The notes under the pieces: model-generated
Seen by the model: the letters and a program-made list of their open reading frames with translations, nothing else
What the model was told of the DNA's origin: nothing
The model's database searches: none
Program-made: the position numbers and the translations under genes
Part shown: positions 17,828 through 42,706 of the stretch, piece after piece
Numbering within the stretch: position 1 is the stretch's first letter
Layout: every line of letters starts with the position of its first letter
NCBI GenBank assembly: GCA_001800825.1
Contig: MGWD01000025.1
Location: 15,303-58,089 of the forward strand
DNA: 42,787 nt
Direction: 5' to 3'
DNA from: Euryarchaeota archaeon RBG_19FT_COMBO_69_17
GTDB lineage: Archaea > Thermoplasmatota > Thermoplasmata > RBG-16-68-12

Positions 17828-18121
17828 CTACCTCCCGATGACCAACCGATACGCTTCCGATACGCCCGCCGTGCTGCTGACCCGCGTGACGCGGATGATC
17901 CGCCCTTCCTCAATCGGCCCCTCGATCCTCTCGAGGACCTGGATCACGGGATCGCTCCGGCGGATCTTCGGGAGCTGGTCGCGGGTGATCCGGAGGGCTT
18001 TCAGGGTCTTCTCCGCCTCTTCCTCCGGAACGAGGCGGTGCTCTGGCACGAACTGGTGCTCCAAGACGTTGAACCTCAAGGGGGGTCCTCCCTGGGCGGC
18101 CTGGTCTGTCCCACCTGGCAT
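17828..18121 (-). CDS. rpoH: DNA-directed RNA polymerase subunit H (Rpb5 homologue)
   Basis: FNVLEHQFVPEHRLVPEEEAEKTLKALRITRDQLPKIRRSDPV...RVSSTAGVSEAYRLV. The true start could be the internal TTG (LRFNV, near 18079). Confidence 0.9.
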   Translation of the reverse strand: MPGGTDQAAQGGPPLRFNVLEHQFVPEHRLVPEEEAEKTLKALRITRDQLPKIRRSDPVIQVLERIEGPIEEGRIIRVTRVSSTAGVSEAYRLVIGR

Positions 18122-18156
18122 GTCACCGTTGCGGCCGCCCTACGGGCCCGCGGGGA

Positions 18157-18189
18157 CTTTCGGGGTCCCCGCACGGGCCGCGGGGCCCT
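18157..18189 (-). other. predicted tRNA intron 3 (33 nt, position 59/60, hBHBh')
   Basis: Central helix U54UCG57 paired with CGAA, bulges AA|A and AG|U, inner helix GGG/CCC, plus a 6-bp CCCCGC/GCGGGG hairpin. Confidence 0.72.
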
Positions 18190-18211
18190 TTCGAACCCCG
18201 GACCACCCGGT

Positions 18212-18242
18212 CTCTCTCCAGCCTCCTTGGGGGAGATGTGGT
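18212..18242 (-). other. predicted tRNA intron 2 (31 nt, canonical position 37/38, hBHBh')
   Basis: Central helix C32UUU35 paired with AGAG, bulges UA|A and AG|A, inner helix CCA/UGG, plus a CUCC/GGAG hairpin. Confidence 0.75.
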
Positions 18243-18259
18243 TAAAAGCCGGATGCTCT

Positions 18260-18286
18260 TTCTAGGGGCGACGGGATCGCCGTCCT
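18260..18286 (-). other. predicted tRNA intron 1 (27 nt, position 20/21, relaxed BHB)
   Basis: Sequence AGGACGGCGAUCCCGUCGCCCCUAGAA. The central helix is exon CUAG paired with intron CUAG. The bulges are GU|A and AA|A. The D stem forms the outer helix but is interrupted by A14 and G15. Confidence 0.6.
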
Positions 18287-18354
18287 ACCTAGCTGAGCTA
18301 CGGGCCCTCGGGCTGGCGGCGGCGACATGCGACCGCAGTCCAAATGGACCCCTC

Positions 18355-18362
18355 TAATTAAA
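18355..18362 (-). promoter_or_regulatory. TATA box (TTTAATTA on the minus strand) upstream of tRNA-Lys and possibly the RNAP operon
   Basis: Strongest AT-rich element between 18308 and 18467, about 47 nt upstream of the tRNA 5' end. This implies a short leader that would be removed by RNase P. Confidence 0.5.
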
Positions 18363-18467
18363 CTTTGCGGCCGATCGGACGCTCCCAGCCTCGCGGCAGC
18401 ACGTCCCGGGCCTTTTTCATCGGACAATCTGGATAATAATCGCGCCTCCGGAGGGACCCCCACAACG

Positions 18468-18475
18468 TTTTATAG
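18468..18475 (+). promoter_or_regulatory. TATA box TTTTATAG for the Zn-ribbon/aEF-1beta pair
   Basis: Centred about 26 nt upstream of GTG 18498, which fits a leaderless geometry. Confidence 0.55.
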
Positions 18476-18497
18476 ACCGCCGTTCTTCCGGCCGGCC

Positions 18498-18668
18498 GTG
18501 AGCCCCTCGGAGAACCGGTGCGCCTCCTGCGGCGCCGTGCTCGTCGGGAGAGGGACCACGTCGTTCCCCTGCCCGAGCTGCGGCCAAAGCCGTATCGGTC
18601 GCTGCGCGCGATGCCGGGACCAGTCCGTCGCGTACCGCTGTCCCCATTGCGCCTTCGAGGGCCCCTGA
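18498..18668 (+). CDS. small Zn-ribbon protein (COG2888-like) commonly found upstream of aEF-1beta
   Basis: GTG start in frame with track ORF 18327..18668. Sequence VSPSENRCASCGAVL...FPCPSCGQSRIGRCARCRDQSVAYRCPHCAFEGP has four CxxC pairs. Synteny with ef1b supports the call. Confidence 0.75.
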   Translation: MSPSENRCASCGAVLVGRGTTSFPCPSCGQSRIGRCARCRDQSVAYRCPHCAFEGP

Positions 18669-24995: not shown

Positions 24996-25529
24996 CTACG
25001 CGTCCGGCTTCGTCGCGGACTTCACGATCATGGAGCCGAGGGAGTGGAACACGGTCTCCACGTTCTCTCCCGTTTTCGCGCTGGTGAGGTAGTAGGGCGC
25101 GTCGAACGCCTCCGTGGCCTGCCCGACTTGATCCTCCCCGAAGGCGGCCTGGTCCTTCAGGTCCGTCTTGTTCACGGCAAACACGACGGGAATCTCCCCG
25201 ACCGTGCGGAAGACGGACTCGACCCAGGAATCGAGGTCCTCCAGGGTGTCGTACCGCGTGAGGTCGGCGACGGCCAGGATGCCCTGGGCCCCGTGGAAGT
25301 AGGCCTCCCGGAGGAGCTCCCGGAAGCCCTTCGAGCCCATGATGTCCCAGATCGTCATGTCCATCTGGATCGCCCCGCCGCCCCGCTCGTCGAGGGTCAT
25401 CTCTTTCTTGGAGACCTTCGCCCCGAGGGTGACGATGTAGCGGTCGTCGAACTCATCGAGGACGTAGCGGCGGATGAGCGAGGTCTTCCCCACCGCGTGC
25501 TCGCCCACGAGGCAGATCTTGACCTTCAT
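24996..25529 (-). CDS. Ras/Rab-like small GTPase
   Basis: Starts at an internal ATG (25529; the track start is TTG). G1 GEHAVGKT, G2 Thr in IVTLG, G3 WDIMG, G4 NKTD, G5 TSAK. Confidence 0.88.
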   Translation of the reverse strand: MKVKICLVGEHAVGKTSLIRRYVLDEFDDRYIVTLGAKVSKKEMTLDERGGGAIQMDMTIWDIMGSKGFRELLREAYFHGAQGILAVADLTRYDTLEDLDSWVESVFRTVGEIPVVFAVNKTDLKDQAAFGEDQVGQATEAFDAPYYLTSAKTGENVETVFHSLGSMIVKSATKPDA

Positions 25530-25660
25530 CCGACGGGGCTCTGCCAATCTCGCACGACCTCGAGGACGGGCGCGGGTCCTCCCGTGCCGATGGCATCCGA
25601 CACGCTCTATTTAGTCGTTTGTGAGTCATTTCGCGGCGACGAAACCTGAGCCCCGCGACT

Positions 25661-42633: not shown

Positions 42634-42706
42634 AGCCACCAGGGAGAATTGAACTCCCGACCTGCCGCTTACAAGGCGGCTGCTCTACCGACTGAGCTAT
42701 GGTGGC
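42634..42706 (-). tRNA. tRNA-Thr (anticodon UGU), no intron
   Basis: GCCACCA-UA-GCUC-AGUCGGUA-GAGC-A-GCCGC-CUUGUAA-GCGGC-AGGUC-GGGAG-UUCAAUU-CUCCC-UGGUGGC-U is a clean 73-nt cloverleaf. Confidence 0.93.

Follow-up and report, generated by a model that had tools for sequence, protein, structure and literature searches.

A tRNA-Lys(UUU) gene with three predicted bulge-helix-bulge introns beside rpoH-rpoB in a Thermoplasmata archaeon

The stretch of DNA analysed here, 42,787 nt of the metagenome-derived contig MGWD01000025.1 of Euryarchaeota archaeon RBG_19FT_COMBO_69_17 (hereafter the window), contains a tRNA-Lys(UUU) gene interrupted by three short introns, at tRNA positions 20/21, 37/38 and 59/60. 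Very probably this is a functional, vertically inherited gene, whose introns would be excised by the splicing endonuclease EndA at bulge-helix-bulge (BHB) motifs to give a 74-nt tRNA; the exon-intron anatomy, the orthology of the gene, selection on its helices and its recovery in independent assemblies give direct support. Multi-intron tRNAs are already known, and what is new is the presence of three introns in a lineage where no three-intron gene had been catalogued.

Structure of the gene and its splice motifs

The gene is composed of the following features:

18143..18307, minus strand: whole tRNA-Lys(UUU) gene, four exons and three introns, 165 nt; CCA not encoded
18287..18307, minus strand: exon 1, tRNA positions 1-20 (acceptor 5' strand, D-stem 5' strand, D-loop to U20)
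18260..18286, minus strand: intron 1, 27 nt, position 20/21 in the D-loop, relaxed HBh' motif
18243..18259, minus strand: exon 2, positions 21-37 (D-stem 3' strand, anticodon-stem 5' strand, anticodon UUU, A37)
18212..18242, minus strand: intron 2, 31 nt, canonical position 37/38, strict hBHBh' motif
18190..18211, minus strand: exon 3, positions 38-59 (anticodon-stem 3' strand, variable loop, T-stem 5' strand, T-loop to A59)
18157..18189, minus strand: intron 3, 33 nt, position 59/60 in the T-loop, strict hBHBh' motif plus a 6-bp GC hairpin
18143..18156, minus strand: exon 4, positions 60-73 (U60, T-stem 3' strand, acceptor 3' strand, discriminator G73)

An earlier, sequence-only reading of the window had proposed a tRNA-Lys(UUU) gene with introns at these three positions, and both the sequence and the borders that it gave proved exact. 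The spliced 74-nt sequence is called tRNA-Lys(ttt) by ARAGORN and has the cloverleaf that had been drawn for it, with all four stems paired (7 bp in the acceptor stem, 4 bp in the D stem, and 5 bp each in the anticodon and T stems), G18G19, U33 and a UUCGAAU T-loop. When only inserts 1 and 3 were excised, ARAGORN returned tRNA-Lys(ttt) with a 31-nt canonical intron. Removal of the inserts thus yields a canonical cloverleaf, as it does in the archaeal BHB-spliced tRNA genes.

The unspliced locus gave no ARAGORN call; it gave no Rfam match either, at the gathering threshold or at E<=1. The Rfam tRNA model (RF00005) assigns 71.7 and 69.3 bits to intron-less orthologs that are 5 mismatches away from the spliced form. 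Standard pipelines miss the gene, so MAGs (metagenome-assembled genomes) of this kind would seem to be without a tRNA-Lys(UUU). Six public gene-call tables, which contain protein-coding genes only, list no feature at the tRNA locus.

Other kinds of disrupted genes were discarded. A split or permuted tRNA gene is ruled out by the four exons being colinear, on one strand and within 165 nt, and a self-splicing group I/II intron by the size of the inserts (27-33 nt) and the lack of a match to any Rfam intron family. Similarity among the three introns, as would be expected from intron transposition like that of Thermoproteales, was not evident. Regarding other interrupted tRNAs in the window, a search for the GGTTCRA T-arm motif gave only this locus outside coding sequence, and Rfam at E<=1 returned nothing further as a candidate.

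The BHB geometry applied here consists of two 3-nt bulges with 4 bp between them, each cut falling after the second base of a bulge. All three inserts fit this geometry, in the sole register that gives the mature sequence, and their central helices are paired at 4/4 positions. Introns 2 and 3 have both flanking helices (hBHBh'). In intron 2, C32 U33 U34 U35 pair with intron AGAG, the bulges are U36 A37 A and A G A38, the outer helix is the anticodon stem and the inner helix is CCA/UGG. In intron 3, U54 U55 C56 G57 pair with intron CGAA, the bulges are A58 A59 A and A G U60, the outer helix is the T stem, and the inner helix is GGG/CCC, followed by a CCCCGC/GCGGGG hairpin. Intron 1 has the inner helix only: its central helix joins C16 U17 A17a G18 to intron CUAG, with bulges G19 U20 A and A A A21, and the D stem, which serves as the outer helix, is offset from the central helix by the unpaired A14 G15. 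The D stem closes a 2x3 internal loop that contains the 3' cut site of this intron, which was therefore classed as a relaxed HBh' motif. All the helices named in the sequence-only reading, with their 4-bp central helices and 3-nt bulges, were found, and so was the CUAG/CUAG pairing of intron 1 with its relaxed outer helix.

For transcription, cleavage, ligation and the acting enzyme we infer a route whose processing steps follow the pathway established for archaea. Transcription would give a precursor of 165 nt or more, probably starting from the CCGCAAAGTTTAATTAG element (18354-18370) and possibly running on into rpoH-rpoB. EndA would then excise 27 nt at 20/21, 31 nt at 37/38 and 33 nt at 59/60, with introns 2 and 3 acting as strict hBHBh' substrates and intron 1 as a relaxed HBh' substrate. 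At each motif, four exon loop bases would pair with four bases near the 3' end of the intron, and the cuts would fall in the flanking 3-nt bulges. An RtcB-type ligase would join the exons into the 74-nt tRNA, and CCA would be added afterwards.

Given that the window derives from a metagenome, the interrupted gene might be thought an artefact of assembly or binning, through a chimeric join or collapsed repeats. The exact RpoB protein of the window is encoded on 17 contigs of JGI and ENA assemblies, and in the six of these contigs that were compared, all assembled independently, the 165-nt gene is present and identical except for one single-nucleotide polymorphism (SNP), C/G at 18221, in the inner helix of intron 2. 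The allele is C in the window and in one contig, G in four contigs and N in one; G at this site pairs with C5 of the intron, which closes the inner-helix mismatch and lengthens the helix. Homologous three-intron genes are also present in 12 other species-level genomes from different studies. The artefact is already refuted by the independent contigs, and we leave it practically no probability.

Orthologous genes and selection on exons and introns

The comparison set consisted of 80 related rpoB loci, 69 of which contain a tRNA-Lys(UUU) at the same site, upstream of rpoH-rpoB. When the sequence between the exon blocks is removed, all 70 sequences (the 69 loci and the window) correspond to tRNA-Lys(ttt), and in 60+ orthologs exon 1 is identical or has <=3 mismatches. 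Since orthologs without introns exist, the identity of the exons is settled. The number of introns per ortholog ranges from 0 to 3, always at 20/21, 37/38 and 59/60, in the following patterns:

No introns: 20 genes
D-loop intron only: 2 genes
T-loop intron only: 3 genes
D-loop and T-loop introns: 29 genes
D-loop and anticodon introns: 3 genes
All three introns: 13 genes (the window and 12 loci)

Over the 70 genes, the D-loop intron was found 47 times, the T-loop intron 45 times and the 37/38 intron 16 times, so that the canonical intron has the narrowest distribution of the three. The patterns were mapped on an rpoB neighbour-joining tree, taken as a sketch, in which the placement of L018 was disregarded (long branch, wrong ORF, or open reading frame). 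The intron pattern is clade-wise and follows the tree: the Thermoplasmatales/DHVE2-like branches and the Methanomethylophilaceae have no introns, the combination of D-loop and T-loop introns is found in several clades, Methanomassiliicoccus MAGs among them, and the 37/38 intron is limited to one subclade, which holds the window and in which three genes are without the T-loop intron. The gene is not a one-off, as predicted D-loop and T-loop introns recur widely among Thermoplasmata, Methanomassiliicoccus MAGs included. A single orthologous gene beside rpoH, with 0, 1, 2 or 3 introns at fixed positions along dated branches, provides a natural series for the study of tRNA intron gain and loss, and would also allow a direct test of the cutting range of the enzyme.

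Exons and introns differ markedly in their divergence. The exons of the three-intron orthologs are 86-100% identical to those of the window (95-100% in 11 of the 12, with L025 at 86%), and they are 100% identical in four species-level relatives (L002, L003, L004 and L028). The introns of the same genes are 37-89% identical to those of the window, with lengths of 19-67 nt. Changes in the exon stems across orthologs are compensated. The introns appear to evolve fast yet to keep their helices.

Covariation was assessed on gap-free motif-core constructs (A2, A3 and A4), in which pairs were counted and compared with 500 shuffles and with slid controls; as the register of the constructs was set by the assumed splice sites, these figures favour the model somewhat:

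Intron 1: 96.3% of helix cells paired; shuffled mean 80.3%; 0/500 shuffles reach the observed value; best slid control 45.9%
Intron 2: 92.0% of helix cells paired; shuffled mean 79.9%; 0/500 shuffles reach the observed value; best slid control 57.7%
Intron 3: 91.8% of helix cells paired; shuffled mean 78.1%; 0/500 shuffles reach the observed value; best slid control 71.6%

None of the 500 shuffles matched the observed pairing or covariation. In the inner helices of every intron, changes on both sides were found at 5/5 pairs. Where D-loop bases 16-18 contact intron 1, compensation is seen at three of four pairs (10 sequences change UA to CG, and 7 change AU to CG), and such a joint change of an exon loop base and an intron base is hard to explain other than by selection for the predicted splice motif. 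Every putative BHB helix that is able to vary shows compensatory changes.

These data bear on the idea of a decaying pseudogene with three insertions, in a genome where a separate, intact tRNA-Lys(UUU) serves translation, an idea that would suit a locus left uncalled by standard tools. Its exons, however, do not show relaxed constraint, being unchanged in the four relatives named above while the introns diverge, and their stem changes are compensated. The intron helices covary, the SNP segregating in the population falls within an intron, and the position beside rpoH is kept across the class, where the intron-less versions are plainly the working gene. We consider a pseudogene very improbable.

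Splicing endonuclease of related genomes and known multi-intron systems

A profile of EndA units from M. jannaschii, A. fulgidus, S. tokodaii, M. kandleri and ARMAN retrieved only Methanococci-, Methanopyrus-, Asgard- and ARMAN-like proteins, and a profile of the long-type Archaeoglobi enzymes matched Archaeoglobi only. Candidates were found with a DNA pattern for G-x-K-[FY]-G-x-x-F-x-x-Y, biased towards GC at third codon positions (GC3) and run over metagenome contigs, which returned 120 metagenome loci, 75 of them with an EndA homolog. Among these is a family of ~350-aa proteins from GC-rich soil contigs, with Pfam domains in the order N, C, N, C, corresponding to two tandem units; over their entire length they align with the alpha'2 enzyme of A. 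fulgidus as well as with the fused enzyme of M. kandleri. Members are annotated as tRNA-intron lyase of Thermoplasmata, Methanobacteriota or Thermoplasmatota archaeon MAGs.

The family was found in contigs from VBMI01, VBMF01, JAIBJG01, JAHKKK01, JAXAXI01, JAIYTB01, JBFONA01, JASDBE01 and ERZ27254793, and none of these nine sources is among the assemblies of the rpoB matches, so that the family was not traced to an assembly with a three-intron gene. By accession, VBMI01 and VBMF01 fall in one series with those EA_ MAGs that have a three-intron gene, and the numbering suggests that they come from the same study. One member, P0279, is present in the ENA sample ERZ27254793, with a 99.7% identical copy in JGI Ga0209642; the samples holding the rpoB of the window have accession numbers near to these two, suggesting a single sample series. 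The link of this family to the genome of the window is circumstantial.

In these proteins the Tyr/His/Lys triad of the C-terminal unit is intact, and the His of the N-terminal unit is replaced. They have neither the Crenarchaea-specific loop (CSL) of P. aerophilum and A. pernix nor the ARMAN-2 insertion (ASL) that precedes the catalytic His. Being a single polypeptide, the enzyme of the related genomes is not of the Thermoproteales type, which has separate alpha and beta subunits and a CSL. The N-terminal unit is full-length and only its catalytic His is gone; in Thermoplasmatales, Halobacteriales and Archaeoglobales, by comparison, the structural units are reported to be shortened. In L201-L217 and L224, the endA gene has a divergent PDDEXK_19/HTH_3 protein gene upstream and a convergent HAD hydrolase gene downstream, often followed by a DUF1028/PG_binding protein gene.

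Besides the registration of the covariation constructs, several points weigh against a gene whose three introns are all excised by EndA. The unconstrained fold of the 165-nt precursor (-94.2 kcal/mol, z = -4.6) recovers the acceptor and D stems along with the intron 1 and intron 2 helices, and pairs the T-arm region otherwise, so that the minimum-free-energy structure is without the intron-3 motif; a fold with all three motifs enforced is ~14 kcal/mol less stable. Intron 1 is without a continuous outer helix. A second, intron-less tRNA-Lys(UUU) may also be encoded elsewhere in the genome. Pfam scans and a local hidden Markov model gave no EndA match, either within the window or among the 80 rpoB loci, and the EndA of related genomes has neither CSL nor ASL, loops reported to be needed for relaxed motifs (PMC5829648).

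Some of these points would also fit a real gene in which EndA does not remove every insert, the D-loop insert being removed by another activity, inefficiently, or after the other two, which would make this a regulated or slow-maturing tRNA. The HBh' motif of intron 1, with its offset D stem, and the loop-less enzyme of the relatives agree with this, as does the analogous D-loop intron of M. kandleri, which is not efficiently removed by the A. fulgidus alpha'2 EndA and is removed slowly by the loop-less M. kandleri EndA (PMC5829648). On the other hand, no exon-intron contact in the data set covaries more strongly than that of the intron 1 central helix and 5' bulge, which points to selection for an EndA-type geometry. 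Of the three introns, the one in the D-loop is also the commonest, present in 47 of the 70 orthologs versus 45 and 16 for the others, and its removal must therefore work. Partial removal by EndA is unlikely in our judgement, and excision of all three introns by EndA is the preferred reading.

Positions 20/21 and 59/60 are among the known archaeal tRNA intron sites (PMC4090602), and the known maximum is three introns per tRNA gene (PMC8450103; PMC4033280). The tRNAscan-SE 2.0 census, which covers 217 archaeal genomes, lists 16 three-intron genes, every one of them from Thermoproteales (Table S7, PMC8450103), and none among 6970 tRNA genes of 144 euryarchaeal genomes (PMC8450103), which agrees with the earlier remark that a multi-intron tRNA is unusual for this lineage. 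We found no paper describing multi-intron tRNAs in Thermoplasmata. According to reviews, Euryarchaeota with alpha4 or alpha'2 enzymes have single canonical introns only, and multi-intron or non-canonical tRNAs and relaxed motifs are tied to (alpha-beta)2 or epsilon2 enzymes with specific loops (PMC4090602, PMC4033280, PMC5829648). The present gene and its orthologs are an exception to this rule, since they bring a maximally interrupted tRNA to Thermoplasmata, where related genomes encode an alpha'2-like enzyme that has neither CSL nor ASL. The present case adds an ortholog series with 0-3 introns and a relaxed D-loop intron paired with a seemingly narrow-type endonuclease.

The three-intron genes of Thermoproteales (e.g. 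Pyrobaculum, Thermofilum; Sugahara et al. 2008) likewise have colinear exons, at most three short BHB-type introns at non-canonical positions that include the D- and T-loops, and removal by EndA and a ligase. Their hosts, however, are TACK archaea with an (alpha-beta)2 EndA that carries the Crenarchaea-specific loop, whereas the host here is a Thermoplasmata archaeon whose relatives have a tandem two-unit EndA without the loop. The nearest precedent is the M. kandleri pre-tRNA-Glu(UUC), which has an HBh' D-loop intron just before A21 and a canonical intron (Kaneta et al. 2018, PMC5829648). It shares with the present gene a euryarchaeal host, a relaxed D-loop intron together with a 37/38 intron, and an EndA without a specificity loop; it differs in having two introns, none of them in the T-loop, and an EndA that is an (alpha-beta)2 heterotetramer, compared with the single two-unit polypeptide of the genomes related to the window.

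Closer in lineage, at the order level, are three Methanomassiliicoccales genomes, whose tRNA introns number 13 canonical and 6 non-canonical in the census, with a single two-intron gene (Table S7, PMC8450103). The non-canonical introns and the two-intron gene are consistent with the tRNA-Lys with D-loop and T-loop introns of the Methanomassiliicoccus MAGs L019, L021 and L022, and presumably reflect this form; the census entries differ from the present case in that no three-intron gene is listed, and they exist as table entries only. A eukaryotic nuclear tRNA gene also has one intron in each of three arms, removed in a BHB-dependent manner, but by the eukaryotic Sen complex and in an unrelated lineage. 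The disrupted tRNAs of ARMAN-2 (Micrarchaeum; PMC3239211) resemble the present gene in occurring outside TACK and having many non-canonical introns, and differ in their three-unit epsilon2 EndA with ASL, compared with the two units, without such an insertion, of the family found here.

Host lineage, gene context and the leader-trailer stem

The best rpoB matches among species-representative genomes are soil MAGs of the EA_, SMAG and MFD series, with 92-93% identity, labelled Thermoplasmata or Methanobacteriota archaeon. Remoter matches include Methanomassiliicoccales, other Thermoplasmata and DHVE2, with an overall range of 60-93% identity, and no affiliation with Crenarchaeota/TACK is indicated, as the relatives are Thermoplasmata and Methanomassiliicoccales MAGs. 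The GC content of the window is 64-73%. Judging from these sequences, the host is a GC-rich soil Thermoplasmata archaeon related to Methanomassiliicoccales. The euryarchaeal-type gene content that had been described, namely an unsplit rpoB (1197 aa), PolD (the DP2 subunit was found) and a stand-alone 5S rRNA gene, was observed in full.

The tRNA gene is followed by rpoH, rpoB, rpoA', rpoA'', L30e and NusA genes, in that order. The rpoH start codon, TTG at 18079, lies 63 nt downstream of the tRNA and has GGGAGGA just before it. The elements flanking the tRNA gene are:

18354..18370, minus strand: BRE/TATA-like (B recognition element/TATA) element CCGCAAAGTTTAATTAG, ~47-63 nt upstream of the tRNA 5' end, identified by sequence inspection only
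18310..18330, minus strand: leader arm of a leader-trailer stem that extends the acceptor stem
18118..18140, minus strand: trailer arm of the same stem, which extends the acceptor stem

The BRE/TATA-like element is conserved in the closest relatives, and no other AT-rich stretch was seen in the inspected flanks (18050-18400), nor was an AT-rich element seen in the 63-nt interval that separates the tRNA from the rpoH start (18079-18142). Because there is such an element upstream and none between the two genes, the tRNA-Lys may share a transcript with the rpoH-rpoB-rpoA operon. One public gene call has a 59-aa ORF (L218 178-355, plus strand, equivalent to about 18470-18647 of the window) in the spacer that separates aEF-1beta from the tRNA promoter.

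The leader-trailer stem consists of ~20 bp, imperfectly paired, and is kept in the three-intron clade (L001-L007, L010, L025 and L028). In close relatives it shows compensatory changes (UA to CG, GC to CG), and in L006, L010, L007 and L025 the stems are of unrelated sequence. The z-scores of the duplex are negative in 13/13 three-intron genes and around zero in most intron-less genes. A BHB motif that would make the tRNA an EndA-excised unit, as in pre-rRNA, was looked for in this stem and discarded, as its bulges are 1 nt or one-stranded and are not conserved. The stem may clamp the ends of a heavily interrupted precursor, or may mark its excision from a longer transcript.

A broader scenario, which we put forward tentatively and think doubtful as a whole, is that a large clade of Thermoplasmata, including Methanomassiliicoccus, routinely splices a relaxed HBh' D-loop intron and a T-loop intron with a two-unit, alpha'2-like EndA lacking CSL and ASL, the loops to which broad substrate specificity has been ascribed until now, and that in the three-intron clade the precursor may be held by the covarying leader-trailer stem and cut from a transcript shared with the RNA polymerase operon. 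If true, this would represent an independent route to broad specificity, or else the rule that alpha4 and alpha'2 enzymes cut only strict canonical introns would fail in vivo.

Other features were observed in the window. A 183-aa ORF (24996-25547, minus strand) has strong matches to Ras/Roc/Arf small GTPases (Ras E = 1e-32), here in an archaeal genome. A large surface or adhesion protein is the probable product of a 1540-aa ORF (27124-31746, minus strand), in which double zinc ribbons and TPR repeats occur together with a lamin-tail domain and DUF11/DUF7507 repeats. The 5S rRNA gene (26935-27055, plus strand; 74.4 bits) has no 16S or 23S gene nearby. An intron-less tRNA-Thr(UGU) gene is located at 42634-42706 (minus strand; 73.8 bits), so not every tRNA of this genome is interrupted.

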